A DNA stretch of 64,000 nt from Escherichia phage KKE7M, in sequence record PQ356295.1; one strand, written 5' to 3'. Shown here piece after piece: positions 20,360 to 62,889 of this stretch. A model generated the notes under the pieces. That model saw nothing but the letters and a program-made list of their open reading frames with translations, ran no database searches and had not been told where the DNA came from. Position numbers and translations under genes: made by a program. Position 1 is the stretch's first letter; each line of letters starts with the position of its first letter.

Positions 20360-20435
20360 TGGTCGTGGTAAACGGAGTCGAACCGTTGTTTCTCGATTAT
20401 CGGTCGAGTGTACTAACCATCTGTACGATACCACA
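20360..20435 (-). tRNA. tRNA, anticodon GAU (Ile) by hand fold
   Basis: 7 bp acceptor, T-arm AACGG-TTCGACT-CCGTT, anticodon loop CCGATAA, CCA encoded; C at position 33 is unusual. Confidence 0.5.
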
Positions 20436-20440
20436 ATAAT

Positions 20441-20523
20441 TGGCAGCAAGGTGAGGAATCGAACCCCTTGATCTATGGTTTGGAGCCATATTGAGTACCA
20501 TACTCTTTTAAATCTACCCAGCT
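20441..20523 (-). tRNA. tRNA-like, anticodon CCA (Trp), atypical D region
   Basis: clean anticodon arm TATGG-CTCCAAA-CCATA and T-loop TTCGATT, but 26 nt between acceptor and anticodon stem and imperfect acceptor pairing. Confidence 0.35.
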
Positions 20524-20581
20524 ATGAGTTCCTTGAAGTGTCAATGTAACTTAATCATTACACCAGAAGGGAGGTATTTAG

Positions 20582-20660
20582 TGGAGGCGGGAATCGGATT
20601 TGAACCGATGATCTCCAGCATATGAAACTGGCGAGGACGACCAGACTCCTCTATCCCGCG
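20582..20660 (-). tRNA. tRNA-Met (CAU), initiator-like
   Basis: acceptor CGCGGGA with 1-72 mismatch as in bacterial initiator tRNA, loop TTCATAT, T-loop TTCAAAT, CCA encoded. Confidence 0.6.
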
Positions 20661-20675
20661 CAATCTGTAGTAATT

Positions 20676-20760
20676 TGGTAGCTAAGGTGAGACTCGAACT
20701 CACAATCCCTTGGGGCAATACGTTCTAAGCGTATCGTGTATACCATTCCACCACTTAGCC
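20676..20760 (-). tRNA. tRNA-Leu (UAG)
   Basis: class II fold with long variable arm, anticodon loop CTTAGAA, T-arm GTGAG-TTCGAGT-CTCAC, CCA encoded. Confidence 0.65.
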
Positions 20761-20837
20761 ATAATAAGTACACCACTGTAAGAAGCCTCAATGTGCTATT
20801 GACAGTTAACCAAGTCTACTCCTTGGATGGTGTTATT

Positions 20838-20912
20838 TGGTGCAGAGAGATGGTAACGATCCATCCTTTCTACCTTTTCAGGGTAGCACTAATCCGTCTC
20901 AGCTATCTCTGC
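20838..20912 (-). tRNA. tRNA-Phe (GAA)
   Basis: perfect acceptor GCAGAGA/TCTCTGC, anticodon arm CTACC-CTGAAAA-GGTAG, unusual T-loop ATCGTTA. Confidence 0.6.
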
Positions 20913-20917
20913 AAATT

Positions 20918-20993
20918 TGGTCAGTGCGGCAGGACTCGAACCTGCGACCTGAAGCGTCCAAGGCTCCCACGCTACCAACTGCGCTACGCACTG
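20918..20993 (-). tRNA. tRNA-Pro (UGG)
   Basis: perfect 7 bp acceptor, anticodon loop CTTGGAC, T-loop TTCGAGT, CCA encoded. Confidence 0.65.
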
Positions 20994-21000
20994 TAAATCT

Positions 21001-21075
21001 TGGCTGGAGATCTAGGAATCGAACCTAGTCATCACGACTTCAAAGGCCGTTGCCTTCCCACTAGGCTAATCTCCA
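21001..21075 (-). tRNA. tRNA-Gln (UUG)
   Basis: perfect acceptor TGGAGAT/ATCTCCA, anticodon loop CTTTGAA, T-loop TTCGATT, CCA encoded. Confidence 0.65.
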
Positions 21076-21127
21076 ATAAAACTAAAAATCACTTAAAAAG
21101 AACCGCTAGAGTTTGAAGGAGAAAACC

Positions 21128-21154
21128 ATGAGCGAAAAGAGAAATTTTCTCTAG
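21128..21154 (+). other. 8-codon mini-ORF (MSEKRNFL) with strong RBS inside an 8 bp inverted repeat
   Basis: GAAGGAGAAAACC-ATG; flanked by CGCTAGAG (21104-21111) and CTCTAGCG (21149-21156); lies between two tRNA genes. Confidence 0.25.
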
Positions 21155-21174
21155 CGATTCCATTTAAATAATCT

Positions 21175-21249
21175 TGGAGCGAGTAACAGGACTTGAACCT
21201 GCACCTGGAGGGTGGAAACCTCATATGCTACCATTAACACTATACCCGC
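21175..21249 (-). tRNA. tRNA-Gly (UCC)
   Basis: acceptor GCGGGTA with one G-U, anticodon loop TTTCCAC, T-loop TTCAAGT, CCA encoded. Confidence 0.6.
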
Positions 21250-21260
21250 TTAACAATATT

Positions 21261-21290
21261 ACTCTAACATATTATTAGCCCCTTTGTCAA
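21261..21290 (-). promoter_or_regulatory. promoter candidate for tRNA transcript (TTGACA N18 TAGAGT), overlapping a hairpin
   Basis: minus-strand TTGACA at 21290-21285, TAGAGT at 21266-21261, about 12 nt upstream of the tRNA-Gly 5' end; hairpin 21277-21296. Confidence 0.35.
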
Positions 21291-21304
21291 GAGGCTTTTG
21301 ATAT

Positions 21305-21634
21305 TTATTTTAAAATAGTAGATGCACCACGTCTGTTTAGATATGCAACAGTAAAGTCCAAATCACCTATTTCTTCAGGTTCCCACTGACCTTCTAAGCC
21401 ATAGCAAGAACAATGATATGCGTGTACTTCATAAAACAGAGATGTTTTCATATCATAAAAATAAACGTGAGATTCACCTTCATAATATGCACAGTCATAA
21501 GTGGCAGAAAGAATTACAATGTTATCCTTATCTAACTCTACTTCATAATATCTTTCAACATCTTCGATATCATCAAAACCATCGAAAACATTGATGTTAA
21601 AATATTTCTCTAACTCTTTTTCTGTCACATACAC
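21305..21634 (-). CDS. hypothetical protein embedded in tRNA cluster
   Basis: 109 aa acidic ORF with AAAGGAG RBS (GTG start likely); no recognisable domain. Confidence 0.45.
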   Translation of the reverse strand: MYVTEKELEKYFNINVFDGFDDIEDVERYYEVELDKDNIVILSATYDCAYYEGESHVYFYDMKTSLFYEVHAYHCSCYGLEGQWEPEEIGDLDFTVAYLNRRGASTILK

Positions 21635-21651
21635 TCCTTTAGAGTTAAAAT

Positions 21652-21726
21652 TGGTGCTCCCACAAGGACTCGAACCCTGATAAGTTGCTTACAAGGCAAC
21701 CGTAATAGCCGTTATACGATAGGAGC
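21652..21726 (-). tRNA. tRNA-Thr (UGU)
   Basis: acceptor GCTCCTA/TGGGAGC, anticodon arm GTTGC-CTTGTAA-GCAAC, T-loop TTCGAGT, CCA encoded. Confidence 0.6.
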
Positions 21727-21732
21727 AATACT

Positions 21733-21809
21733 TGGACTCGACAGGATTCGATACCTGCAATTCCAGAAGCCTATTGGCGACTGGGGGTTTACCTTAACTC
21801 TACAAGTCC
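21733..21809 (-). tRNA. tRNA-like element without a canonical anticodon arm (possible pseudo-tRNA)
   Basis: 7 bp acceptor GGACTTG/CGAGTCC and T-arm with 8 nt loop TATCGAAT, but the 44 nt core does not fold into D and anticodon arms. Confidence 0.3.
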
Positions 21810-21816
21810 ATAATTC

Positions 21817-21901
21817 TGGCGATGGATCAAGGATTTGAACCTTGCTAGAACTTTCGTTCACGGATTAACAGTCCGTCGCCCAACCACTAGGCCAATCCAT
21901 C
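21817..21901 (-). tRNA. tRNA with anticodon GUU (Asn) but class II-like 15 nt variable arm
   Basis: perfect acceptor GATGGAT/ATCCATC, anticodon arm ACGGA-CTGTTAA-TCCGT, variable arm GAACGAAAGTTCTAG, T-loop TTCAAAT, CCA encoded. Confidence 0.5.
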
Positions 21902-21908
21902 TTTAATT

Positions 21909-21995
21909 TGGTGCAGGTAGTTGGACTCGAACCAACGAAGCCCCGAAGGGCAAGAGATTTACAGTCTCCAGCAATTGCCGCTATGCGATACCTAC
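21909..21995 (-). tRNA. tRNA-Tyr (GUA)
   Basis: class II fold, anticodon loop CTGTAAA, long variable arm with GCCC/GGGC stem, T-loop TTCGAGT, CCA encoded. Confidence 0.6.
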
Positions 21996-22000
21996 GTGTT

Positions 22001-22075
22001 TGGTACATCGTGAAGGATTCGAACCTTCGCTCCCTTGATTAAAAGTCAAGTGCCTTACCGCTTGGCTAACGATGC
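22001..22075 (-). tRNA. tRNA-Lys (UUU)
   Basis: acceptor GCATCGT/ACGATGT, anticodon arm CTTGA-CTTTTAA-TCAAG, T-loop TTCGAAT, CCA encoded. Confidence 0.65.
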
Positions 22076-22435
22076 ATACTCTTTACACCACCGTGTATGT
22101 CCAGCATAAGCCTTTGTACTATGGAATACTGCTCCGCAAACACACACCGTGGTTCTAATTCTGTTTCCCATGTCTTGGGAAATTCTTGTCTTCTTCATGT
22201 GACAAGCATGACACAAAAGTTGACATTTGGCAAGTTCTTCTTGCCATTTAGCCTCCGAACATGAACTCATTCGACTAATATAAAACTTCTTCTCGCTTGA
22301 ATCTTTATGATCAAATTCCAAGTCATCTACAGACCCACAATTAACACATTTACCTCCAAGCTGGAGGATTGCGGAAGCTCTTCGCTTCTGCCACCGAGTT
22401 TTCATGTATTCCCGCATATAATCATTACTTGGCAT
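22055..22435 (-). CDS. HNH homing endonuclease
   Basis: CVNCGS...EFDHKD...LLCHACH motif set; AGGAGG RBS; 3' end overlaps first 21 nt of tRNA-Lys. Confidence 0.7.
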   Translation of the reverse strand: MPSNDYMREYMKTRWQKRRASAILQLGGKCVNCGSVDDLEFDHKDSSEKKFYISRMSSCSEAKWQEELAKCQLLCHACHMKKTRISQDMGNRIRTTVCVCGAVFHSTKAYAGHTRWCKEYASLAKR

Positions 22436-22582
22436 ACATCCTCCTCGTATAAATTATCTTTAAAATAGCCAGTGTTTGCGGCACTTAGCTATGAAGTATT
22501 GGGGTATCGGTAAAGTGGTTGCCGCCACTTGCCGAAGATTTACTCTGCTAAAGTAAGAGTACAAGCTACATTAAAGATAACT

Positions 22583-22668
22583 TGGCGGTAGATGTAGGAC
22601 TTGAACCTACACGCCGTTTCCGACGACAGTTTAGCAAACTGTTGTGGCTACCATTTCACCAATCTACC
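22583..22668 (-). tRNA. tRNA-Ser (GCU)
   Basis: perfect acceptor GGTAGAT/ATCTACC, anticodon arm ACAGT-TTGCTAA-ACTGT, long variable arm, T-loop TTCAAGT, CCA encoded. Confidence 0.65.
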
Positions 22669-22713
22669 ATTTTTAATTATTCAAAACAACCTGAATCTGT
22701 TACTAATTGAATT

Positions 22714-22803
22714 TGGAGGAAGATAATGGAGTCGAACCATCACCGTATCGCTACAATGGGCCAGGGTTCAAACCTGGTTGCGCACCGCTGCGCCCTACCT
22801 TCC
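22714..22803 (-). tRNA. tRNA-Ser (UGA)
   Basis: anticodon arm CCAGG-TTTGAAC-CCTGG, long variable arm, T-loop TTCGACT, CCA encoded. Confidence 0.6.
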
Positions 22804-22867
22804 CGTTATCATACTTTAAATCTAACATAAAACTATCTTGCTTGTCAAGTAGTTTTTAAAAACTTTT

Positions 22868-22949
22868 TGGCCGGGGTGACAGGATTCGAACCTGCATACT
22901 CCAATTACTCGGTTAACGCCTGATTAGAAGTCAGGTGAGATACACCCCG
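22868..22949 (-). tRNA. tRNA-like, anticodon UCU (Arg), apparently lacking a D arm
   Basis: perfect acceptor CGGGGTG/CACCCCG and canonical T-arm, but only 7 nt between acceptor and anticodon stem (CCTGA-CTTCTAA-TCAGG) and 23 nt before the T-arm. Confidence 0.4.
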
Positions 22950-23030
22950 TTTTCACAGTAACTATAACAAAAAACTAAGTAAATGTCAAGATATTTTTAC
23001 TAAAATTATTATTTAAATTGAAGCCTAGGT

Positions 23031-23116
23031 TGGTGCAAGTGGAGGGATTCGAACCCTCAATCATTTAAGCGTTGCGTTTTAAGCACAATGTGTATCACCA
23101 ATTCCACCACACTTGC
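23031..23116 (-). tRNA. tRNA-Leu (UAA)
   Basis: perfect acceptor GCAAGTG/CACTTGC, anticodon loop CTTAAAA, long variable arm, T-arm GAGGG-TTCGAAT-CCCTC, CCA encoded. Confidence 0.65.
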
Positions 23117-23147
23117 ATATAGGAGATGCATAGCACCTCCTTTTAAA

Positions 23148-23223
23148 TGGTGGTTCCCCAGGGTTACAATCCCTGCCCTCGACACTTATGAGGTGTGCGC
23201 TCTCGTCAGTGAGCTATGGAACC
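23148..23223 (-). tRNA. tRNA with anticodon CAU (elongator Met or Ile2), unusual T-loop
   Basis: anticodon loop CTCATAA, D-stem GCTC/GAGC, T-loop ATTGTAA between CAGGG/CCCTG, CCA encoded. Confidence 0.5.
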
Positions 23224-23230
23224 TTGAATA

Positions 23231-23497
23231 TTAAGCATACTGGGTCATTTCACCAGCTTCGCGTTTCTCCAGAAGAACTGTAATCAAAGCAATAGCTGCT
23301 TCTTCTTCGTGAGGAAGCCCCATTTCATCCAGAAGAGCAAGGAAATCAATTACCAAACTTTCTGTTTTAAGGCTAACGCTACCATTTTCGTTTTCAGTAA
23401 GAACTGATTCAGGTTCAAAAATAAAGATTGCTCCACCTTTATTATCAATCAATACGTGCTTCTCAATCAATTCTTTACCATAAGTACGTTCTGTCAT
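23231..23497 (-). CDS. hypothetical protein
   Basis: 88 aa acidic ORF upstream of tRNA cluster. Confidence 0.45.
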   Translation of the reverse strand: MTERTYGKELIEKHVLIDNKGGAIFIFEPESVLTENENGSVSLKTESLVIDFLALLDEMGLPHEEEAAIALITVLLEKREAGEMTQYA

Positions 23498-23553
23498 AGT
23501 TTTCTCCTTTTTGTTTAACTTGGGCTTATCTTAGCAAATAACTAGCTATGTTG

Positions 23554-23664
23554 TCAACTAGTTTTTACAATATTTTTTCTTGATCTGTAACCTAGTGTAT
23601 AACCGCATACAAAAGATACAAGAGCAATAAAAACAGATAAGCCAAAAATAATTTCTGTAGACAT
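23554..23664 (-). CDS. small hydrophobic peptide (36 aa, single TM)
   Basis: ATG with AAGGAAACAGT RBS; MSTEIIFGLSVFIALVSFVCGYTLGYRSRKNIVKTS; below track cutoff. Confidence 0.3.
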   Translation of the reverse strand: MSTEIIFGLSVFIALVSFVCGYTLGYRSRKNIVKTS

Positions 23665-23677
23665 ACTGTTTCCTTAA

Positions 23678-23899
23678 TTATGTGAAATCTAATTCCTCCT
23701 CTGGTGCTGTGTAATTTAGAAGAAGATCAGTTACACTTTGATGTTGATAAACCCTTTCGGGACTGTCATCGAATGCCAAACTTGTACAAATCGAGCATAG
23801 ATCCGACTCTTGAATATTACCATTCCTGTCTCTACGGGAGTGATTAGTCAAGTGTCTGTTACAGGCTCGGCAACGAAAATAAAAATTATGTTGTTTCAT
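23678..23899 (-). CDS. small Cys-rich (zinc-finger-like) protein
   Basis: 73 aa with CRAC and CSIC pairs. Confidence 0.45.
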   Translation of the reverse strand: MKQHNFYFRCRACNRHLTNHSRRDRNGNIQESDLCSICTSLAFDDSPERVYQHQSVTDLLLNYTAPEEELDFT

Positions 23900-23970
23900 A
23901 AATCCTTCGTGAAGCCCATCCAGGGCAGTTATAGGCTCTCCTTACCTTAATCTTATCACGAAGTTTTTAT

Positions 23971-25704
23971 TTAGTCAACCTGGATGGTTCCCATAGTACG
24001 AAGAACCTCTACATCAACACGGTTGCGGATATCAGTGAATGTTTCATCACGTCCTTCTACTTGTGGTGTAATAACCTTACCATCCTTGAAGATAACTTGT
24101 AACTCATTGTCTTCATCCTGGATATCTTTAAAAGAAAGATTATCTACAAGAGAAAGATTACCATTGGTATCCTTAACAACCTTAATAAAACCTTTTGCAG
24201 AGCGTTTACCAGGATCAGTTTTAGGCTCCTTACTTACCAAAATTTCGTGTTCACCGATGATGCTACCTGTTGCTTTAACAGCAAAGCCAAAAGTATCTCG
24301 TGTATTGAACTGATAAGTATAACTACCAACACCAAATACAATATTGGAAGCTGCAAAACCTTTCTTCTTCAGTCGGCGTAAGATCTCGTGTTCTCGTTCA
24401 ACAGTAATAGAATCACCATAAATCATACCGATATGCTCATCAAGAACCTTGTAGCCTTTTCGGTTGATAGTACCACCAAACACTTCCCAAAGGATTTGAA
24501 TAGAACCTACTGCTTCACAATAAGGAATCTCATAAGTTTCATCAATACAGTCAGCAACACTACAATCCTGAAGAACATTGTAATACTTATTAACATCAGC
24601 CAAATGAACTACTTCAGTGGCTGTCGCAATACCATTATTTAAAAGATCTTCATAGTTGTCAAAAGATTCAACATTGTATCCTGCAACAACTTTAACCGGA
24701 TCTCCTGAATCTGGACGAATAACAAGACGACCATTTCGTGACATAATGGAATCTTTCAATTCTACCAGAATGCGAGTCAATACAGCCCAATAGTCATAAG
24801 AGTCTGCTACATATGAACAAAAACCTTCTGGAACAATTTCTTCGATATAACGACGAAGAAACTCTTTTTCTGCTACATAACGAAGCCCATCTACATCATC
24901 TTTAAGATGTGGGAAATGTTTCTTCAGATCTTCAACAATAGCTCCAATGTTAGTCGTTGCTACTGAATGTTCTGTTGCCGGAATCGAACCTGCAACAAAC
25001 TGATCATAATCAATACCATAATAGTCATGCACAGTTTCAATAGCCAGAATATTATCTGTTCCTGTGAACGATGCCAAGTGAGCGATACCACTCTTATAAC
25101 CATCTTCGATATTACTTAAACCACGTAGGCTAAAATCATGACACTGGAAGTTAACGTGATCAATATTATCACACGTTGCCATCGCATATGCCATAGCGAT
25201 ACGCTTATACTGAAAAGCTGCTGTGGCATTAGTCATTGTCTTCCAAGTTTCATCTGACAACAGTGTTTCCACATAGTTAGTTAACCAAAAGAATTTTTCT
25301 AAAGTATTATGCACAGTAAATACAGGAACACCAATAGGACACAAAACACCTTCTGGCAGAGATCGAACTTCCAGCGGAAGATAACCTAAATCGTGCAATT
25401 CTCCCCAACACTCAGCAGAAGGAGCAGAAGCACCTAATGCATTCTTAGACATACGATAAAATTTATTTACTGCTGCACTACGAGACATTTTAAAGAAGCC
25501 GTCCCACATAGTTACAAGAGCATCGGTTACTGCTCGACGAATACCTAAGACAATCACACCACGTGCTTCACGATCTGCATAGTGTGCAAAGTTTTTATCA
25601 TTACGAGGAGTTAAATTAGAGAAAATTAGTTTTGTATTTTGGTTGTACATCTGCTTGTGACCAGGTTTATACCAATCAGTAGCAAAAGGTGCAAAAATAT
25701 TCAT
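23971..25704 (-). CDS. nicotinamide phosphoribosyltransferase family protein (NAMPT/NadV-like; could be a Namat-type enzyme)
   Basis: 577 aa with RPDSGDP signature of the NAMPT/NAPRT family; adjacent to Prs-like gene. Confidence 0.75.
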   Translation of the reverse strand: MNIFAPFATDWYKPGHKQMYNQNTKLIFSNLTPRNDKNFAHYADREARGVIVLGIRRAVTDALVTMWDGFFKMSRSAAVNKFYRMSKNALGASAPSAECWGELHDLGYLPLEVRSLPEGVLCPIGVPVFTVHNTLEKFFWLTNYVETLLSDETWKTMTNATAAFQYKRIAMAYAMATCDNIDHVNFQCHDFSLRGLSNIEDGYKSGIAHLASFTGTDNILAIETVHDYYGIDYDQFVAGSIPATEHSVATTNIGAIVEDLKKHFPHLKDDVDGLRYVAEKEFLRRYIEEIVPEGFCSYVADSYDYWAVLTRILVELKDSIMSRNGRLVIRPDSGDPVKVVAGYNVESFDNYEDLLNNGIATATEVVHLADVNKYYNVLQDCSVADCIDETYEIPYCEAVGSIQILWEVFGGTINRKGYKVLDEHIGMIYGDSITVEREHEILRRLKKKGFAASNIVFGVGSYTYQFNTRDTFGFAVKATGSIIGEHEILVSKEPKTDPGKRSAKGFIKVVKDTNGNLSLVDNLSFKDIQDEDNELQVIFKDGKVITPQVEGRDETFTDIRNRVDVEVLRTMGTIQVD

Positions 25705-25736
25705 AGTTATGTCTCCTTGTTTGTTAGTGTGGGAGT

Positions 25737-25765
25737 ATCTTACTAAGCATACTCCCTATTGTCAA
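25737..25765 (-). promoter_or_regulatory. promoter candidate (TTGACA N17 TAAGAT) overlapping an 8 bp hairpin
   Basis: minus-strand TTGACA at 25765-25760, TAAGAT at 25742-25737; stem GGGAGTAT/ATACTCCC at 25731-25756. Confidence 0.35.
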
Positions 25766-25775
25766 CACTTATTAT

Positions 25776-26669
25776 TTAAAAATTCCACACGTATGGAAAT
25801 ACAATTTGTTGTTGCAAATCTGACTGATTCTTAACAAGAACACCGGAATCTTCTTGGATGTTATCTTCCCACACATTAAGAGAATGAATGCAGTCAAAGT
25901 GCTCACTTAACTCTTTAAGACCTTTAGAAAAGATACCGTGTGTAACATATAACTCAATCTTACCTGCGTTACGAGCACGTAGCACTTTAGCCAACTCAAT
26001 AAAAGTTCTACCACCATCACAGATATCATCTACGATCATCAGGTTACGCTTATTGAAATCCTGTACAGAAATGTCTGTACGAACAATAGCACCTGTTGCG
26101 GTATCTCTAACCTTCTCTGCACAGAACACATCTAAAGACATTTTCTTAGATAATTTAAATATTTTCTTAAGAGCACCACCATCAGGGCTAACAAGAGCAA
26201 AATTCTCCATACGTAACTTCCACTTTAAAGTTTCGTAAGCAATCTCTTCTTGAGGTATTACACAGAGTCTGTCAAACACTGCTGGAGTAACATCACTGTG
26301 GGGATCAGCAACGATAACACGTGAGAAATTTAATGAGTTAATTATAGAAGCAAATGCTTTAACTCCGAATGCTTCTCCAGGCTCACACACTCTGTCTTGT
26401 CGTGCATACGGTACATACAGCATGAGTAAATCAACACAATATGGTTTATGATATAGCATATTGTCCAATGCATTCTTAGTCATAACCAAAGTCATCAAGT
26501 CTTTAGCAGATCTTACTTCTAAAGTGAGTAAGATTCTGTCTGTAGCATGATTGAAACCTGATAGATTCGTATCTAATTGAACATGTTGTTCTCCACCAGA
26601 GAATGTAAACACTTTAACGTCTACATCAGTAACATAACAGTCAACACCATGCAGAATACTAACTTTCAT
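25776..26669 (-). CDS. ribose-phosphate pyrophosphokinase family protein (Prs-like; could be an ADP-ribose pyrophosphokinase)
   Basis: 297 aa with VSPDGGA and DDICDGGRT PRPP-binding loop motifs. Confidence 0.8.
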   Translation of the reverse strand: MKVSILHGVDCYVTDVDVKVFTFSGGEQHVQLDTNLSGFNHATDRILLTLEVRSAKDLMTLVMTKNALDNMLYHKPYCVDLLMLYVPYARQDRVCEPGEAFGVKAFASIINSLNFSRVIVADPHSDVTPAVFDRLCVIPQEEIAYETLKWKLRMENFALVSPDGGALKKIFKLSKKMSLDVFCAEKVRDTATGAIVRTDISVQDFNKRNLMIVDDICDGGRTFIELAKVLRARNAGKIELYVTHGIFSKGLKELSEHFDCIHSLNVWEDNIQEDSGVLVKNQSDLQQQIVFPYVWNF

Positions 26670-27078
26670 TCTTTATCTCCTTAGTTGAGTTAGGACTTTA
26701 TGTTCTCTACTCTACCTACAGATAGATCTAAAGTCAATAGATATTTATTATTTAATTAATAATAAAATTAATAAAGAATCTATTGTTAGTATAGAGTATG
26801 TATGTTAGTATTATAGACATAACATAGTGCTATATGTAGACTACTCAGTTGTTTGTTAGATCATGTATCACAAGATTAGATAACACCCCCTCGCTGCGCT
26901 CGGCGTTTTTCGGGGGTTAGGGTAGCATACTTTTTTGCGTTTGTCAACACCTTTTTGGATTATTTTTAAGTACAACCTAAACCTCCTAAAAACGATTGTA
27001 ACGAGTTTTACTGTGAGGTAAGGTGATTGCATATCTTAAAGGCGATTAGCTCGTTACAGAGCCATACAGGAGGAAATA
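26670..27078. promoter_or_regulatory. AT-rich divergent intergenic region with short repeats and a GC hairpin
   Basis: 409 bp between minus-strand and plus-strand gene blocks; direct repeat GTTAGTAT twice, inverted CAATAGAT/ATCTATTG, CCCCC...GGGGG hairpin near 26886-26917. Confidence 0.4.
26709..26737 (-). promoter_or_regulatory. promoter candidate (TTGACT N17 TAGAGT) for the Prs/NAMPT-like operon
   Basis: minus-strand TTGACT at 26737-26732, TAGAGT at 26714-26709. Confidence 0.35.
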
Positions 27079-28499: not shown

Positions 28500-28690
28500 T
28501 GTTCCTTATTTATTCAGGTAAAGCCAAATACATGCAAGGTGTAAAGCGTGTAGAAGTAGCAGATACTGTAACTATAGGAAAATCCTTTATTCTTTATTTG
28601 TTTTATATCAATGGAGAAAGATTTGCTGTTTCTAAGAAGTTGGTAGATAATGGTAAAACTTGGAAAGAAGAGAAACAGGAAGGGGGTTGA
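28499..28690 (+). CDS. hypothetical protein
   Basis: 63 aa ORF. Confidence 0.4.
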   Translation: MFLIYSGKAKYMQGVKRVEVADTVTIGKSFILYLFYINGERFAVSKKLVDNGKTWKEEKQEGG

Positions 28691-29034
28691 TAGTGGCTAA
28701 AATTCTTTGGTTAGACGATTTAAGAGATCCTAAAGATTATGGTTATGAGGATGCCATTTGGTTAAAATCTTTTGAGGATTGGTTAGCTTTTGTTTCAGAT
28801 GAAGATAATTTCAATAATATCTCAGAGATACACTTCGACAATGATCTTGGAGAAGATCAGGAAGGATATCATGCATTCTTAGACGTAGAATGTATGTTGT
28901 ACGTGGGTGAATGGGATGCTCTTAAAACTATCTATGTTCATACATCAAATCCTTCTGCTGCTGGTAAATATATGTTAGCTAAGGAAAATTTTATTTCATC
29001 CTATGGTGTTGAAATTAAACGTGTTAACTATTAA
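28660..29034 (+). CDS. hypothetical protein
   Basis: ORF in track; likely GTG start at 28693 after GGAAGGGGG. Confidence 0.45.
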   Translation: MERRETGRGLIVAKILWLDDLRDPKDYGYEDAIWLKSFEDWLAFVSDEDNFNNISEIHFDNDLGEDQEGYHAFLDVECMLYVGEWDALKTIYVHTSNPSAAGKYMLAKENFISSYGVEIKRVNY

Positions 29035-29042
29035 GGAGGTGT

Positions 29043-29189
29043 TATGCTTTATGTTATTTGGGTAGATGAAGGGGATGGGTTTTATGTATACAAACACACT
29101 AACCATTGGCCCGATGTAGAAAAAGCACTTGCAACTTTTGAAGATTGCTTTTACGATATATATACAGACGAAGAGTATGAAGAGAATTG
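29043..29189 (+). CDS. small hypothetical protein (48 aa)
   Basis: ATG with AAGGAGGTGTT RBS; below track cutoff. Confidence 0.4.
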
Positions 29190-29549
29190 ATGTGCGCTAC
29201 TAATCAACATGATATTTGTTACCAACCTCTTACCTGGATTGGTGAGGATCACTATGCTCAACGTGTTATAGTCTGCGCTGCGAATAAGTATATTCTCAAC
29301 AATGGCGAAGAGTTAATTATTCCTTGTGTTAGGCATGCAAATCCTGTACTATCTGCACAACTTAATGTTTTAAAAGATGCAGGATTGATCGATAAACTGT
29401 TTTGCTTACCTGATAATCAAGGGTTTATTGATCAGTATTATAATTGGTGGAGTCGCAAAGATGCTTATATCATTGCAGATAACGCCAAACAAATTAACTA
29501 TGAAAGAAATGGTCACGACAGTGAACTATTCAGCGAGGGATTATACTAA
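29187..29549 (+). CDS. hypothetical protein
   Basis: 120 aa ORF. Confidence 0.45.
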   Translation: MMCATNQHDICYQPLTWIGEDHYAQRVIVCAANKYILNNGEELIIPCVRHANPVLSAQLNVLKDAGLIDKLFCLPDNQGFIDQYYNWWSRKDAYIIADNAKQINYERNGHDSELFSEGLY

Positions 29550-30100
29550 TGTTTATTACAAGTGATTTGCATTTTATGCACAAACGTATTCGAGAGTTTG
29601 CTCCTGCATATCGCCCGTGGGAAGATATGGAGCATATGACAGAAGCCCTGATCGAAGCATGGAATAAATGTGCCACAACACCAGGAGTAAAGATGTACCA
29701 TCTTGGGGACTTCTGTTTCGGGACTGAAGAAGATACCCGTAAGATTGCTTCCCGTCTCCAAGGGGATATTACTTACTGTGTTGGGAACCATGATTACAGT
29801 AAACACAGAAAAGTGCTTGCAGAGTATGGAGAAGTGGTTTATTATGACGAAGTGAAATATCAGAAGCTGTTTTTCGTCTTAAGCCATTACCCTATGGCTG
29901 CCTGGAATAAACAAGGGCATGGATCAATCATGCTACACGGGCACTCTCATGGATCATTCCCTGATCATTTGTATGGGAAAATGTTGGATGTTGGTTGGGA
30001 CGCACACGGAAAAATCTTGCATTTTGACGAAATTATCTCTATTATGGATAAGCGTGATATTGTTGTTGTAGATCATCATAAGATAATCAAAGGAGATTAA
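29549..30100 (+). CDS. calcineurin-like metallophosphoesterase
   Basis: DLHF, GDxxxG, GNHD and HGHSH metal-binding motifs. Confidence 0.7.
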   Translation: MFITSDLHFMHKRIREFAPAYRPWEDMEHMTEALIEAWNKCATTPGVKMYHLGDFCFGTEEDTRKIASRLQGDITYCVGNHDYSKHRKVLAEYGEVVYYDEVKYQKLFFVLSHYPMAAWNKQGHGSIMLHGHSHGSFPDHLYGKMLDVGWDAHGKILHFDEIISIMDKRDIVVVDHHKIIKGD

Positions 30101-30101
30101 G

Positions 30102-31034
30102 GTGGCTAAGTTCAACTGTGATGACCTGATTGCAAAAGGTTTAGTGCATAAAAAAGAAGTTAAATCTGGAGAGTATGCTGGTCTTGCTGTACTTAAATAC
30201 AAAAACAATGTATTCTGGGACAATTTGTGGGACGTAGACAAACGCCTTCTAGATTGTCGTGGGTTGGTTGTTGACTCAGAAGACAATGTTGTTATTTGGC
30301 CTTTTACTAAAATCTTTAATCGTTTTGAAAATGGTACAGATCTTCCAGCAGACCAACTTGTAGATGCTGTCCGTAAAGTAAACGGTTTTATGGCATCTGT
30401 AGGTGTGTACAAAGGGAAACTTGTTGTATCAACAACAGGGAGCCTAGAATCAGATTTTGCAATTATGGCAAAGAACCGTATTGTTTCCGAGTGTGACGAC
30501 ATAGAGTATTTCATTAAGTGGACAGAAAGTGCAAAAGCAACTTTTCTTTTTGAAATCTGTGATCCTTCTGATCCACATATTGTCGAAGAAGAACCAGGCG
30601 CGTACTTAATTGGAGCAAGAATTCAAAACCTGGATGGGACAAGTTTCATGTTACCTGAAGGTGTTCTTGATGGGATTGCATCTGTTACAAAGTTTAAACG
30701 TCCTGAAGTTTATCCGATGATTAAATTTTCAGATGTTGTTGAAATGTCTAAACATTGTAGACACGAAGGCTTTGTTGTTCGTGAAACAAACTATCCGTTT
30801 AACTTACTCTTAAAGATTAAGTCACCATACTATCTTGCTAAGAAGTTCCTTATGCGTGGTGGTAATAAGAAGTGGGATATGATTTGGGACAACCCAAACA
30901 ATGCTAAACAAATTGTTGACGAAGAATATTATACTTTGCTAGAATGGCTTCGAAATAATTTTACGAAGGTTCAATGGGCTGCTCTAGATTCACAAGAGCG
31001 ACGTAAAGAAATAGAAAACTTCTTTGGAGGCTAA
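30102..31034 (+). CDS. nucleotidyltransferase-fold ligase, probable RNA ligase
   Basis: motif I-like KVNG, motif IV EGFVVRE, motif V LLKIK; flanked by phosphoesterase and kinase genes. Confidence 0.45.
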   Translation: MAKFNCDDLIAKGLVHKKEVKSGEYAGLAVLKYKNNVFWDNLWDVDKRLLDCRGLVVDSEDNVVIWPFTKIFNRFENGTDLPADQLVDAVRKVNGFMASVGVYKGKLVVSTTGSLESDFAIMAKNRIVSECDDIEYFIKWTESAKATFLFEICDPSDPHIVEEEPGAYLIGARIQNLDGTSFMLPEGVLDGIASVTKFKRPEVYPMIKFSDVVEMSKHCRHEGFVVRETNYPFNLLLKIKSPYYLAKKFLMRGGNKKWDMIWDNPNNAKQIVDEEYYTLLEWLRNNFTKVQWAALDSQERRKEIENFFGG

Positions 31035-31439
31035 ATGAAACAACTTATCATTTTACGTGGTGTTTCAGGCGCAGGTAAATCTACAGTAGCAGAAATTATT
31101 TCTGAAGGTTATTGGCCTATCTGTGAGGCAGATCAATATCATTACACAGAAAACGGTGTTTACGATTGGAAGCCAGAAAATGTAGGTAAAGCACACGCAT
31201 GGTGTCAGAGTATTGTTCGTGATGCTATGGCATCTAATATTAAAAAGATTATTGTCTCTAACACTTCAACCACAGAGAAAGAACTTAAACCTTATTTTAC
31301 TCTTGCTGAAGAGTTTGGTTATCAAGTTATCTCTTTAGTTGTTGAAAATAGGCACGGTAACGACTCAATTCATGAGGTTCCACAACATACTCGTGATCAG
31401 CAAGAGAAACGTCTTCGCAGTTCACTTAAGCTACAATAA
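31035..31439 (+). CDS. P-loop kinase, probable polynucleotide kinase
   Basis: Walker A GVSGAGKST at N-terminus; 134 aa kinase-only size. Confidence 0.5.
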   Translation: MKQLIILRGVSGAGKSTVAEIISEGYWPICEADQYHYTENGVYDWKPENVGKAHAWCQSIVRDAMASNIKKIIVSNTSTTEKELKPYFTLAEEFGYQVISLVVENRHGNDSIHEVPQHTRDQQEKRLRSSLKLQ

Positions 31440-46706: not shown

Positions 46707-47692
46707 AATACTTAGTAACAGGTGGTTTAGGCTTTATTGGAAGTGCGGTAGTTCGTTTCCTGGCTAAAAACACTAAGAATGATATTTACGTTATAGATAA
46801 ATGGGGTTACGCTTCAGACCCTAGAAATTTATCAGAAACACCTAATGTAAAGTTTTGTCGTGTTGACTTGACAAATGCTCAGTTAACTGCTAAGATTGTG
46901 GCAGATGTTAATCCAGATTATATAATGCATCTTGCAGCAGAAAGTCACGTAGATAATTCAATAGCATCACCGAGTGTTTTTATAAATTCAAATATTGTTG
47001 GAACATTTAATCTTCTAGAAGCTGTTCGTTTAATGGGAGATAAATCAAATCTTAAAATGTTTCATCATATTTCAACAGATGAAGTGTATGGTGATATGGA
47101 AGAAGGGGATTATCCGTTTACAGAACAGAATCCTTATAAGCCAAGTAGTCCATATGCTGCATCTAAGGCAGCAAGCGATCATTTGGTAAGAGCGTGGCAT
47201 CGTACTTATGGTATTCCAACAGTTATAACAAATTGTTCAAATAATTTTGGAGCGTATCATCATCCAGAAAAACTAATACCTAAAACGATAACAAATATCT
47301 TGATGCATAAACCAATCCCTGTTTATGGCAATGGTCTTCAAGTAAGAGATTGGTTATACGTTGACGATCACGCAGAAGCATTACACCTAGTAGTAACTAA
47401 AGGCAAATCTGGAGAAACATATAATATTGGGAGCAGAAACCCTAGAACTAATATTGATGTAATCTATATGATTTGTGATTATATGGATGCGGTGTATCCA
47501 TCTGAAACAGATGCTTGTAGCCTCATTGAGATGGTTACAGATAGACCTGGACATGATTTAAGATACGAAGTGAATCCTTATAAGATTGAAAAGGAATTAG
47601 GGTGGAAAGCTAAAGGCACATTTGAAGAAAAACTTTATTCAACCATTGATTGGTATGTAGATAACAAAGAGTGGTGGGAAAATAAAGTTTAA
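46703..47692 (+). CDS. rmlB: dTDP-glucose 4,6-dehydratase
   Basis: GGLGFIGS Rossmann motif, [20 protein letters not shown] (YxxxK). Confidence 0.8.
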
Positions 47693-60813: not shown

Positions 60814-61347
60814 ATGGGTTTTGATGACATGTTATTATATGAGGAGGCTTGTGTGAAAGAAGCTATGGCTTTACCAGTTTTATCTATTGATATTACAACA
60901 GTAGACACTTTTTCAGATTGTGAAACGTGTGGATCGTATTCATCTATTGTACATGAAGTCAGTGGGGATTTAGGCACTTACGAAGATGGAGATTATGCAA
61001 GTTGTTTAGGTGATAATCGAGATGGTGAAGTGGCGAATGTTGCAAACTGGATCGCTTCTAAGTTAAAAGAAAGAAATCGTCCGTTCCCTAATCTTCTTAC
61101 ACCAGAATCTATGCTTAAAGCTGAACAAGAGATGGATGACTATGGTTATAAAGTAGATTATGACTATAATGATCCTACTTATAAAAAATTGAGTGACAAG
61201 TATTGGGAACTAGCTAATGCTTATGATAAATACTACTCTACAGAAAACATTGTTAAATTATTTTTAGATTTTGGAGTAGAAATTAATTGGGATTTCGAAG
61301 AGGAAGAGCGTTACGATGCATCTTATTGGGAGGACGAGGGTGAATGA
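60814..61347 (+). CDS. hypothetical acidic protein
   Basis: ORF 60799..61347 in track; likely ATG 60814 with GGAGG RBS. Confidence 0.45.
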   Translation: MGFDDMLLYEEACVKEAMALPVLSIDITTVDTFSDCETCGSYSSIVHEVSGDLGTYEDGDYASCLGDNRDGEVANVANWIASKLKERNRPFPNLLTPESMLKAEQEMDDYGYKVDYDYNDPTYKKLSDKYWELANAYDKYYSTENIVKLFLDFGVEINWDFEEEERYDASYWEDEGE

Positions 61348-62084
61348 TAGAACGAAAACCCTTACCAGATAGAGATTACTTGTTATCAAGGTTTAGTGTG
61401 GAGAATGGTCGTCTTGTTTGGAAACCTAAACCTTCTACAACAAAAGAGAACAAAAGGTGGAATAGCAGATACGCAGGGAAGATTGCAGGGACTATTGATA
61501 AAGTTGGTTACTCTCATGTCAAAATAGATGGTATTGTATATTTGGAGCACAGAATTTGTTTTAAAATGTATCATAATTACTGTCCAGATGTTATAGACCA
61601 TGACGACGGCAATAAACTTAATAATGCGGAAAGTAATTTATTGGATAGTAACTATTTATTAAATAATAACAATAGACACGTAGATGGGTTAGAAGGTATT
61701 TATGAAAAGGATGGTGTTTTTCTTTGGGTTATAAACTACAACCAAGAAACTTTCTCTGTTTCAGGTTTCAAAACTAAAGAGGAAGCTACTGTAGCTAGAG
61801 CTTTAGCAAAACAAGAAATTTTGAAAGGATCTTATATCAAAAAAGAAAAGAAGCGTATAGATAACACTTCAGGATTAAGTTGTGTGTTTGTGGCAACAAG
61901 AGAGAGAACATTCTTTTTCAAGTTTGTGTTTGACAAGACCGCTTATTGCAAATATGGTTTCAACGATCCAGAGAGATGTGCTATAGCTCTGGAGAAGTTA
62001 AGGTTGAAGGTGATGAAAGAAAAATATAAACCTGCAAATAAAAGCATTTGCGAAAAATATAAGGAGGAGATTTATGCCGCGTAG
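61344..62084 (+). CDS. HNH homing endonuclease
   Basis: GYSHVKIDGIVYLEHRICFKMYHNYCPDVIDHDDGNKLNN HNH core. Confidence 0.65.
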   Translation: MIERKPLPDRDYLLSRFSVENGRLVWKPKPSTTKENKRWNSRYAGKIAGTIDKVGYSHVKIDGIVYLEHRICFKMYHNYCPDVIDHDDGNKLNNAESNLLDSNYLLNNNNRHVDGLEGIYEKDGVFLWVINYNQETFSVSGFKTKEEATVARALAKQEILKGSYIKKEKKRIDNTSGLSCVFVATRERTFFFKFVFDKTAYCKYGFNDPERCAIALEKLRLKVMKEKYKPANKSICEKYKEEIYAA

Positions 62085-62889
62085 AGTCATATTCATAACT
62101 GGCGCAGGACTATCTGTGGATAGCGGTATCCCAGCTTTTAGAACAGATACTTCTTCAGGGGAGGCGTTATGGTCTTCTTATGATCTTTCTGAGGTCTGTG
62201 ACATTTTCAACTTCCGTGATGGTTATCAGCAAGAACAAGGTGTTCTTGATGCTATGGGTGGTTTAGATGCGGAAGGATATAACCTCTACCGTAAAACTCA
62301 CGACTTTTACAATAAACGTCGCGTGGAATTAGCGAAAGTTGACCCGAATCCAGCACATCTTCAGATTGGAGAATGGTTCAAAAAATATGGCCCAGAACGA
62401 ATTCTTAACATTACTACTAACGTGGATGACCTCCTTGAACGAGCAGGAGTAAATAGGGAAGAAGTGCTACATGTGCACGGTTTTCTTCCTGAAATTACTT
62501 TTCAAAGAAAAGCTGGACAACCTACAATTGTAAAAGATGTTGGTTATCAAGCCATAGATGTAGATGACTACCATTATGTAAAACCTAATGTAATTTTCTT
62601 TGGAGAAGCTGCTCCACTTTACACAGATATGTATCATATTCTTGATACACTAACGGCTCAAGATATGGTTGTAGTAGTAGGATGTTCAAACCAAGTTATC
62701 AATTTTAATTGGGAATTATTCCCTGCACTTAATATGGGTACAAAAATGATCGTTGTTAACCCAGGAATTAATTACGAAGAAACTCTTCTTTACGAAGATA
62801 GAGGAGTCTTTGTTTATCGAGAAAAGGCCGCAGATGCTTTTAGCAATCCTGCTTTCATAAAAATGATAGAAGATCATTTGACTAAATAA
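62074..62889 (+). CDS. SIR2-family (sirtuin-like) NAD-dependent protein
   Basis: FITGAGLSVDSGIPAFR NAD-binding motif, TTNVDDL, HVHG catalytic His; no CxxC zinc module evident. Confidence 0.75.
   Translation: MPRRVIFITGAGLSVDSGIPAFRTDTSSGEALWSSYDLSEVCDIFNFRDGYQQEQGVLDAMGGLDAEGYNLYRKTHDFYNKRRVELAKVDPNPAHLQIGEWFKKYGPERILNITTNVDDLLERAGVNREEVLHVHGFLPEITFQRKAGQPTIVKDVGYQAIDVDDYHYVKPNVIFFGEAAPLYTDMYHILDTLTAQDMVVVVGCSNQVINFNWELFPALNMGTKMIVVNPGINYEETLLYEDRGVFVYREKAADAFSNPAFIKMIEDHLTK

Follow-up and report, generated by a model that had tools for sequence, protein, structure and literature searches.

The NAD+ reconstitution pathway 1 (NARP1) is one of the main answers of phages to immunity that depletes NAD+ (SIR2, TIR, SEFIR, DSR), and its correct recognition helps to predict which defences a therapeutic phage overcomes. 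Among the closest described systems is that of Escherichia phage Bas63 (JohannRWettstein), in which NARP1 is encoded by genes 79-80 and the operon was validated by deletion (Osterman et al. 2024). The two enzymes of the pathway, the Prs-like ADP-ribose pyrophosphokinase Adps and the NAMPT-like nicotinamide ADP-ribose transferase Namat, are also known from SPbetaL1, where both have been characterised in vitro and structures of Namat are available (9W5X and 9W5W), while the Adps of Vibrio phage ICP1 (ORF228) has been solved with ADPR/ATP and with ADPR-PP/AMP. Two structural papers of 2026 (PMC12774641, PMC13586617) supply sequence signatures that discriminate these enzymes from their relatives. 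For Adps these are a remodelled PP loop that serves the ATP donor (C215-S220 in ICP1 Adps), a catalytic lysine carried on a beta-hairpin, and a set of ADPR contacts (PMC13586617), the adenine being contacted by F18, R87 and F92 in the ICP1 enzyme. In Namat the adenine is held by a clamp helix (SCH) and a clamp loop (SCL); the third SCL residue is Arg, Lys or Tyr and provides or precedes the adenine-stacking residue, and in Bas63 Namat the Trp at the fourth position is said to stack on adenine.

Here, a gene pair of this kind is described from a 64-kb stretch of DNA (the window) of Escherichia phage KKE7M. We consider it to be a plain two-gene NARP1 operon of a phi92-like phage with a probability of about 0.9, the predicted function resting on 31-44% identity to validated enzymes and on motifs. 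The locus is already known, as it is the phi92-family copy of the published NARP1: Osterman et al. (10.1101/2024.02.11.579819) list the orthologues of phi92, PHB05 and JohannJBalmer in their Supplementary Tables S1 and S2 with the entry 'Namat within 10 genes: Yes' and the label 'Adps-associated', not 'Nmnat-associated', and the JohannJBalmer Namat is 99.5% identical to that of the window. In the literature searched, neither an enzyme assay nor phage genetics was found for Justusliebigvirus, nor a test of NARP1 in phi92-like or Bas60-62 phages.

Gene organization and putative expression signals

The window represents 64 kb of a genome of approximately 148 kb, belonging to a phi92-like E. coli myophage (Justusliebigvirus), and 55 GenBank phages are 98-99% identical to it. 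A preliminary description of this DNA had placed a Prs-like gene with the loop DDICDGGRT directly upstream of a NAMPT-like gene with the motif RPDSGDP, and both open reading frames were found exactly as described. The first, designated adps (25776-26669, minus strand), specifies a putative ADP-ribose pyrophosphokinase of 297 aa, and the second, namat (23971-25704, minus strand), a putative nicotinamide ADP-ribose transferase of 577 aa, which is a long form of the enzyme; the two genes are separated by a gap of 71 bp. Each is preceded by a ribosome-binding site AAGGAG that can be read directly from the sequence, 7 nt before the ATG of adps (26677-26682, minus strand) and 8 nt before that of namat (25713-25718, minus strand). 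The pair had also been credited with its own promoter-like element, and such an element is indeed present upstream of adps in the divergent intergenic region 26670-27078, albeit a weak one, as this sigma-70-like candidate (TTGACT-17-TAGAGT; 26709-26737, minus strand) is a consensus match only, at 9 of 12 positions. The consensus scan returned a stronger candidate in the gap between adps and namat, where TTGACA-17-TAAGAT (25765-25737, minus strand) matches at 10 of 12 positions. Sequences of the form TTGACW-N16-18-TAAGAT occur four times in the window as against 0.18 expected, and three of these belong to the present cluster and are on the strand of the genes. A search of that strand downstream of namat did not reveal an intrinsic terminator, and the leftward unit seems to run on past namat into small ORFs and a tRNA cluster. 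The adps and namat genes head a leftward transcription unit behind host-type promoter-like sites, an arrangement that would be compatible with early expression.

Nucleotide-metabolism genes and the tRNA cluster adjoin the pair, and elsewhere the same phage encodes a zinc-less, NAD-consuming protein of the Sir2 family (62074-62889). Pfam scans of the two ORFs downstream and the seven ORFs upstream of adps-namat did not find a Macro domain, and no RyR-domain gene was found among the flanking genes. A neighbouring gene with a cREC_REC 'cyclic-phosphate processing' domain (28660-29034) was considered as an ADPR-cyclic-phosphate accessory and rejected, because its own neighbours, encoding a phosphoesterase, an Rnl1-type RNA ligase and a P-loop kinase, form an RNA-repair cassette unrelated to NAD.

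Assignment of the Prs-like protein

The two genes could in principle encode a true PRPP synthetase and a true Nampt, which would convert ribose-5-phosphate and nicotinamide to NMN and leave completion of NAD+ to the host NadR or NadD. Both proteins belong to the corresponding superfamilies, and it is under this reading that the genes are annotated, about 50 phi92-like GenBank records still naming them 'ribose-phosphate pyrophosphokinase' and 'nicotinamide phosphoribosyltransferase'. For the first protein, profile searches returned a match to phrog_619 (E=3.8e-91) and a score of 118 bits against TIGR01251, covering only positions 24-253 of the 309 profile positions. Validated Adps enzymes score 98-138 bits against the same profile, whereas E. 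coli Prs scores 423 bits and spans positions 1-309. Against PRK01259 the protein reached 98 bits, as compared to a cut-off of 297 and to 533 bits for E. coli Prs, and every NCBIfam Prs equivalog scores it far below its cut-off. With 72-118 bits the protein therefore resembles validated Adps and not real Prs (423-533 bits). One canonical Prs, that of E. coli, served in this calibration, and the published tree was relied upon in addition. By BLASTP the protein is 41, 36 and 35% identical to the Adps of ICP1, Bas63 and SPbetaL1, respectively, and 28% identical to E. coli Prs.

The Adps residues were mapped to F23, R90, H124, D163, K186, D214, D215, I216, C217, D218 and F223, among which F23, R90, H124, D163, D214 and D215 correspond to ADPR contacts. 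The PP loop, DDICDGGRTF at aa 214-223, is identical to that of Bas63 Adps, the corresponding loops being DDICDGAASF in ICP1 Adps, DDLSSFGGTF in SPbetaL1 Adps and DDMIDTGGTL in E. coli Prs. The catalytic lysine K186 is located in EKVRDTATGAIV, which conforms to the hairpin motif K-x-R-D/N-x-x-T-G-x-I common to the four Adps proteins, while E. coli Prs has DKRRPRAN at this position; both loop and hairpin are thus of the Adps kind and not of the Prs kind, which argues against a PRPP synthetase. One adenine contact differs, as Phe92 of ICP1 Adps is replaced by Cys95; this position is Met102 in the validated Bas63 enzyme, and F23 and R90 are conserved. The C-terminal module of Prs (alpha11-alpha12), which serves filament formation and allosteric control, has no detectable match in the window protein, the tail of which could not be aligned to Prs. 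By its PP loop, hairpin lysine, profile scores and apparent loss of the C-terminal module, assignment of the Prs-like protein to the Adps type is supported at the level of sequence.

Assignment of the NAMPT-like protein

The NAMPT-like protein matches phrog_448 (E=1.8e-188) and the Pfam family NAPRTase (E=6e-38), and its best sequence match in the PDB is SPbetaL1 Namat (9w5x, E=6e-118). An AlphaFold2 model (pLDDT 90.2, pTM 0.90) likewise has 9w5x as its best fold match, with a TM score of 0.93. The protein also passes NF006629, an 'equivalog' for nicotinate/nicotinamide phosphoribosyltransferase, its 462 bits exceeding the cut-off of 405, which would favour a true Nampt; however, this profile scores Namats and Nampts alike (460-490 bits) and validated Namats pass it too. 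Overall similarity discriminates weakly (342 bits to Haemophilus ducreyi NadV, 398 bits to SPbetaL1 Namat) and was rejected as a means of classifying the second protein. Only motif and context evidence separates Namat from Nampt. Against NARP2-type Nampt the protein scores low (118 bits).

In the adenine-clamp helix, the window protein carries GSYTYQFNTRD at aa 460-470, with the aromatic residues Y462 and F466, and the validated SPbetaL1 Namat has GSFTYQYNTRD at this position; the signature is kept in 118 of 120 close homologues. True Nampts lack it, the equivalent segments being GAQTYQRNTRD in H. ducreyi NadV, GSGGALLQKLTRD in mouse Nampt and GMGGGLLQQLDRD in a KVP40-like phage Nampt. The Nampt-like catalytic core, phospho-histidine included, is conserved with respect to SPbetaL1 Namat (D10, Y12, F191, R194, D217, A243, H246, R330, D332, G430, D431, G460, S461, T468, R469 and D470). 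The clamp loop reads TPR-N-D-K37-N38-F39, in which the third residue, Lys37, agrees with the rule for this position and is the same as in Bas63, and the fourth is Asn38 where Bas63 has Trp; the Phe at the fifth position, here Phe39, is almost invariant among homologues.

SPbetaL1 Namat retains some PRPP-to-NMN activity in vitro, a property which lends the Nampt reading some credit and owing to which the window Namat may, by analogy, support a minor NMN route alongside NAD+ synthesis. The presence of the adenine clamp, absent from true Nampts, argues against a true Nampt, and experiments with the homologous operon of Bas63, in a host devoid of pncC and nadR, excluded the NMN route there. Taken with the features of the first protein, a PRPP synthetase-Nampt pair is considered highly unlikely, and we regard the two products as Adps and Namat.

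As a long form, the window Namat contains two insertions, which are folded confidently in the model as a predicted helical hairpin (approximately aa 246-290) and a predicted alpha/beta subdomain (approximately aa 343-399). With the two insertions and Asn38, the protein may differ in its specificity for the donor or may have gained a function in regulation or in the binding of a partner. It might also act together with the Sir2-family protein of the phage in a cycle of NAD+ cleavage and resynthesis run by the phage itself, and not solely in answer to host NADases, but such a specialisation is judged to be very unlikely. A protein of 867 aa (P0096), which was considered as an Adps-Namat fusion, proved instead to be a homologue of Namat in which an intein-like insertion interrupts RPD|SGDP.

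Search for an NMN adenylyltransferase and conservation of the gene pair

A NARP2-type pathway would require, besides a Prs-like enzyme giving PRPP and a Nampt, a phage NMN adenylyltransferase (NMNAT), and a distant gene was conceivable, as most of the approximately 148 kb lies outside the 64-kb window. The phmmer searches with NadD and NadR took in every ORF of the window and of a complete relative of 148 kb, which is 94-98% identical where the two overlap, and returned noise only (E>=1). The (H/T)xGH motif, the filter by which NadM-type NMNATs were covered, occurs in just two ORFs of the window and the relative, neither in a GxFxPxHxGH context. A NadR-like bifunctional enzyme, as in NARP3 (PnuC plus NadR-like), was likewise sought by phmmer of the ORFs with E. 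coli NadR, again with noise only. In the NARP2-type loci of Klebsiella phage Kiwi_ER50 and Vibrio phage VS2, a NadM-type Nmnat was not found adjacent to Nampt. With these results, the published label 'Adps-associated' and the 118 bits to NARP2-type Nampt, we regard a NARP2-type pathway as extremely improbable.

The pairing of the two genes is conserved among viral contigs, where a Namat homologue lies downstream on the same strand in 79 of 80 Adps-type loci; 74 of these 79 match the clamp-helix motif G[SA]X6TRD, with Y or F at position 3 in 71, and none of the Adps-Namat loci has a NadD/NadR-like ORF within 4 kb. The suggestion that the pair is an NAD+ reconstitution module is supported by the motifs in both proteins, the score calibration, synteny and the listing in the NARP1 tables. 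The preference of the preliminary description for the two-enzyme ADP-ribose route agrees with the specificity motifs, the calibration, the missing NMNAT, synteny and the same tables. Its observation that the window shows no NMN adenylyltransferase holds and extends to the complete 148-kb relative; an NMNAT elsewhere in the genome, in combination with clustering of both proteins in housekeeping Prs and NadV clades, was what it had named as evidence against this route. Of the profile searches that it proposed, TIGR01251 sets the window protein apart from Prs (118 versus 423 bits), and NF006629 does not separate Namat from Nampt. Its view that the two chemistries are indistinguishable by sequence is now out of date, given the signatures of the two structural papers, the Namat and Adps versions of which are present here.

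Proposed mechanism and significance

By homology to other NARP1 systems, the following sequence of events is proposed. Host defences that act as NADases, such as SIR2-HerA, DSR, type I Thoeris, SEFIR and similar systems, would cleave NAD+ to ADP-ribose and nicotinamide. Adps would then move the beta,gamma-diphosphate from ATP onto the terminal ribose of ADP-ribose, yielding ADPR-pyrophosphate and AMP, and Namat would replace the pyrophosphate with nicotinamide, thereby regenerating NAD+ directly without NMN and without an adenylyltransferase. The pathway is predicted to be ineffective against aRES-type defence because the locus is devoid of a Macro-domain ADPR-1''-phosphate phosphatase (Adpp), and the prediction for phi92-like phages is accordingly resistance to SIR2-HerA, DSR and type I Thoeris and no resistance to aRES. 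It could be argued that the pair mainly lifts nucleotide or NAD+ supply for replication, independently of immunity, given the adjoining nucleotide-metabolism genes and tRNA cluster and the NAD-consuming Sir2-family protein of this phage. However, in cells that carry no defence system NARP1 phages did not increase NAD+, as ADP-ribose is scarce there, and the motifs indicate an ADPR-PP chemistry which pays only once NAD+ has been cleaved; a role as a housekeeping booster is thus very unlikely, and reconstitution of NAD+ in response to immunity is the function we favour.

The practical value of this locus is limited to annotation. Short signatures, namely the PP loop and hairpin for Adps and GS-aromatic-X3-aromatic-X-TRD for Namat, separate what NF006629 cannot.

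Comparison with known systems

The Nampt of NARP2 (KVP40 Nampt plus Nmnat) and NadV of H. ducreyi (9KE8) share the NAPRTase/Nampt fold and the nicotinamide-coupling core with the window Namat, but they lack the aromatic adenine clamp and, unlike the system of this phage, depend on an NMNAT. The same two core enzymes are found in NARP1-AP (Adps, the Macro-domain phosphatase Adpp, encoded no more than two genes from the operon, and Namat) and in RyDEP-associated NARP1, as compared to which the window locus is a minimal form, with no Macro- or RyR-domain gene in its flanks. SPbetaL1 Namat is a short form of 491 aa without either insertion and has Arg40 in the SCL where Lys37 is present here, while its core and SCH signature are conserved in the window protein; in SPbetaL1 Adps the catalytic lysine K162 aligns with K186. 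The closest validated Adps is that of ICP1 (41% identity, 160 bits). Its DDICD PP loop and the hairpin with K185 are conserved in the window protein, as are F18, R87, H121, D161, D212, D213, D216 and F221; A218, A219 and S220 are replaced by G, R and T, as in Bas63, and the C-terminal tail of the window protein is longer. The Bas63 operon, from a Felixounavirus as opposed to a Justusliebigvirus, has the same order of adps followed by namat on one strand, with a gap of 45 bp compared to 71 bp here. The Adps proteins of Bas63 and of the window are only 36% identical and the Namat proteins 40-44%, yet the two systems have in common, besides the PP loop, an identical LYVTHGIFSKG motif, and the Bas63 Namat is also a long form (593 versus 577 aa), both proteins containing an insertion after RPDSGDP, which is longer in Bas63.

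Gene pair and expression signals

The preliminary description had placed a Prs-like gene directly upstream of a NAMPT-like gene, and both open reading frames (ORFs) were found exactly there on the minus strand; adps (25776-26669, 297 aa), containing DDICDGGRT, precedes namat (23971-25704, 577 aa), containing RPDSGDP, with 71 bp between them. The family assignments made at that stage proved unambiguous in profile searches, as the Prs-like protein matches phrog_619 (E=3.8e-91) and TIGR01251 (118 bits) and the NAMPT-like protein matches phrog_448 (E=1.8e-188), Pfam NAPRTase (E=6e-38) and NF006629 (462 bits). AAGGAG lies 7-8 nt before the ATG of each gene. The promoter-like element previously ascribed to the pair is present 5′ of adps as a weak sigma-70-like site, TTGACT-17-TAGAGT (26737-26709, minus strand), while a stronger site, TTGACA-17-TAAGAT (25765-25737, minus strand), occupies the gap. 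TTGACW-N16-18-TAAGAT has four promoter-like matches in the window versus 0.18 expected, three of them in the operon cluster on the gene strand (23528-23557, 23950-23978 and 25737-25765) and one on the plus strand (46868-46896). Every minus-strand copy is directly 5′ of a gene, namely namat and two small ORFs of 73 and 88 aa. We infer that the gene pair would be expressed early from host-type promoters.

Specificity of the two enzymes

Structures of Adps from phage ICP1 established three traits of this enzyme: its PP loop is remodelled and binds the ATP donor, its catalytic lysine (K185) sits on a β-hairpin, and the C-terminal regulatory module of PRPS has been lost (PMC13586617). The aligned PP loop of the window Adps, DDICDGGRTF, is identical to that of phage Bas63 Adps and differs from those of ICP1 Adps (DDICDGAASF) and E. 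coli Prs (DDMIDTGGTL). K186 lies in the hairpin K-x-R-D/N-x-x-T-G-x-I, which is common to the four aligned Adps proteins, whereas E. coli Prs has DKRRPRAN there. F23, R90, H124, D163, D214 and D215 are also kept in the alignment, while F92 of ICP1 Adps corresponds to Cys95 in the window protein and to Met in the validated Bas63 Adps. By BLASTP the window protein scores 160 bits against ICP1 Adps, 137 against Bas63, 82 against SPbetaL1 and 72 against E. coli Prs. In the TIGR01251 calibration its 118 bits fall among those of three validated Adps (98-138 bits), as against 423 for E. coli Prs, and in the profile search it came nowhere near any Prs equivalog cut-off.

For the second enzyme, library profiles do not discriminate: the curated 'equivalog' NF006629 gives similar scores of 460-490 bits to validated Namats (468 and 488), to the window protein (462) and to a Nampt of the NARP2 type (464), the partner of an NMN adenylyltransferase (NMNAT). 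Standard pipelines will therefore go on labelling Namat a nicotinate/nicotinamide phosphoribosyltransferase. The structural study of SPbetaL1 Namat defined an adenine 'selectivity clamp' whose signature is absent from Nampt (PMC12774641). At the clamp helix the window Namat reads GSYTYQFNTRD, as compared to GSFTYQYNTRD in SPbetaL1 Namat (9W5X), GAQTYQRNTRD in Haemophilus ducreyi NadV (9KE8, solved with NMN), GSGGALLQKLTRD in mouse Nampt and GMGGGLLQQLDRD in a KVP40-like phage Nampt. The variable clamp loop is only partly canonical, with Lys37 at position 3 followed by Asn38 and the nearly invariant Phe39; Bas63 Namat likewise has Lys at position 3, but Trp in place of Asn38. Every residue with which SPbetaL1 Namat binds nicotinamide and ribose-phosphate is kept in the window protein. 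The AlphaFold2 model of the window Namat (pLDDT 90.2, pTM 0.90) has 9W5X as its best fold match (TM 0.93), with HdNadV and human NAMPT behind.

Relative to SPbetaL1 and ICP1 Namat, the window protein is a long form with two insertions, both modelled with high confidence: a helical hairpin (~aa 246-290) and an α/β subdomain directly after RPDSGDP (~aa 343-399). Bas63 Namat (593 aa) shares both in part, the first being shorter and the second longer, and the long form has therefore already been functionally validated in vivo. It occurs in all but two of the 120 closest database homologues, many on ~150-kb contigs. In one Namat homologue from the database (P0096, 867 aa) the catalytic motif RPD|SGDP is split by a ~290-aa insertion that looks like an intein containing a homing endonuclease. 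In phrog_12872 (547 positions, annotated nicotinamide phosphoribosyl transferase) the N-terminal 222 positions match Adps and the C-terminal part Namat, which suggests that this family includes either naturally fused Adps-Namat proteins or gene calls that were merged.

Absence of an adenylyltransferase and synteny

The earlier remark that no NMNAT is visible in the window was borne out, and extends to the complete 148-kb relative OZ035770.1, to which the window is 94-98% identical, three short gaps excepted. With E. coli NadD and NadR as phmmer queries, all stop-to-stop segments down to 50 aa in both sequences returned only noise (E≥1), and (H/T)xGH occurred in just two ORFs, neither in the NMNAT context GxFxPxHxGH. 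Among 80 Adps-type loci retrieved from viral contigs with the four-protein Adps alignment, a sample selected with Adps-derived patterns and hence describing the Adps clade rather than Prs homologues as a whole, 79 have a Namat homologue downstream on the same strand and none has a NadD/NadR-like ORF within 4 kb. The clamp-helix motif is matched (G[SA]X6TRD) in 74 of these 79 homologues, with Y/F at position 3 in 71 and at position 7 in 59.

Genomic context

The 3.3-kb region with both genes matches 55 phi92-group phages in GenBank (Justusliebigvirus, Stephanstirmvirinae) at 98-99% identity. Among them are phi92, in which the pair carries gene numbers 107 and 108, and three BASEL phages, JohannJBalmer, PaulScherrer and EmilieFrey. 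In phi92 and the window alike, adps-namat heads a transcription unit continuing into small ORFs, a tRNA cluster and then terminase and structural genes, with replication and nucleotide-metabolism genes divergent from it; the GC content is unremarkable. Just 3′ of namat lie two conserved minus-strand ORFs, each preceded by a promoter-like site, encoding 73 aa (23678-23899, phrog_37033, with CxxC...CxxC cysteine pairs) and 88 aa (23231-23497, phrog_15056). No Macro or RyR domain occurs in either of them, and the operon flanks contain neither the Macro-domain phosphatase of NARP1-AP (10.64898/2026.01.28.702374) nor the RyR-domain RyDEP (PMC13232231).

Directly 3′ follow 15 tRNA genes (20360-23223, minus strand), within which an HNH homing-endonuclease ORF (22055-22435, minus strand; phrog_4234, E=5e-25) overlaps tRNA-Lys by 21 nt. 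A second HNH ORF (61344-62084, plus strand; phrog_99, E=6e-33) abuts the divergent 5′ part of a Sir2-like gene; both HNH ORFs are absent from the relative, otherwise 97-98% identical. The Sir2-family protein (62074-62889, plus strand, 271 aa; Pfam SIR2 E=1.5e-20, phrog_2162 E=2.6e-99) keeps GAGxSxxSGIPxFR and HVHG, lacks the cysteine quartet of the classical sirtuin zinc ribbon (only C42 and C204 are present) and is conserved in OZ035770.1 at only 70% amino-acid identity although the genomes are ~98% identical. It belongs to an NAD-consuming enzyme family and is encoded by a phage that also carries NARP1. On the divergent strand ~2 kb from the operon (28660-31439, plus strand) lies an RNA-repair-like cassette in which a protein with a cREC_REC 'cyclic-phosphate processing receiver' domain (PF20274, E=8e-14) is accompanied by a calcineurin-like phosphoesterase, an RNA ligase of the Rnl1 type and a P-loop kinase (AAA_33). 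This cassette probably counters nucleases that attack tRNAs or anticodons and has no relation to NAD.

Relation to the NARP1 pathway

The preliminary view that sequence alone cannot decide the chemistry no longer holds, as the Namat clamp signature, the Adps PP loop and hairpin, the calibration, NMNAT absence and synteny now decide it. Its NAD+ reconstitution reading was correct in outline: the genes are present, and the specificity motifs, gene order, NMNAT absence and synteny, all observed directly, agree with it. By homology, a host NADase would release ADP-ribose and nicotinamide, Adps would convert ADP-ribose and ATP to ADPR-pyrophosphate (ADPR-PP) and AMP, and Namat would join ADPR-PP and nicotinamide to give NAD+ and pyrophosphate. 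Such a pathway is predicted to fail against aRES, which produces ADPR-1″-phosphate.

Our literature search found no paper testing NARP1 in phi92-like phages. In the discovery paper of this two-enzyme pathway, Adps and Namat of SPbetaL1 formed NAD+ from ADP-ribose, ATP and nicotinamide, ADPR-PP was detected in infected cells, and genes 79-80 of Bas63 defeated SIR2-HerA (Osterman et al., 10.1101/2024.02.11.579819). Its supplementary tables enter phi92, PHB05 and JohannJBalmer proteins twice, once under Prs/Adps homologues, where they are marked 'Namat within 10 genes: Yes', and once under Namat homologues, where they are classed as 'Adps-associated' (10.1101/2024.02.11.579819). These are orthologues of the window proteins, the JohannJBalmer Namat being 99.5% identical, and the locus, as judged from its genes, is an already catalogued NARP1 system.
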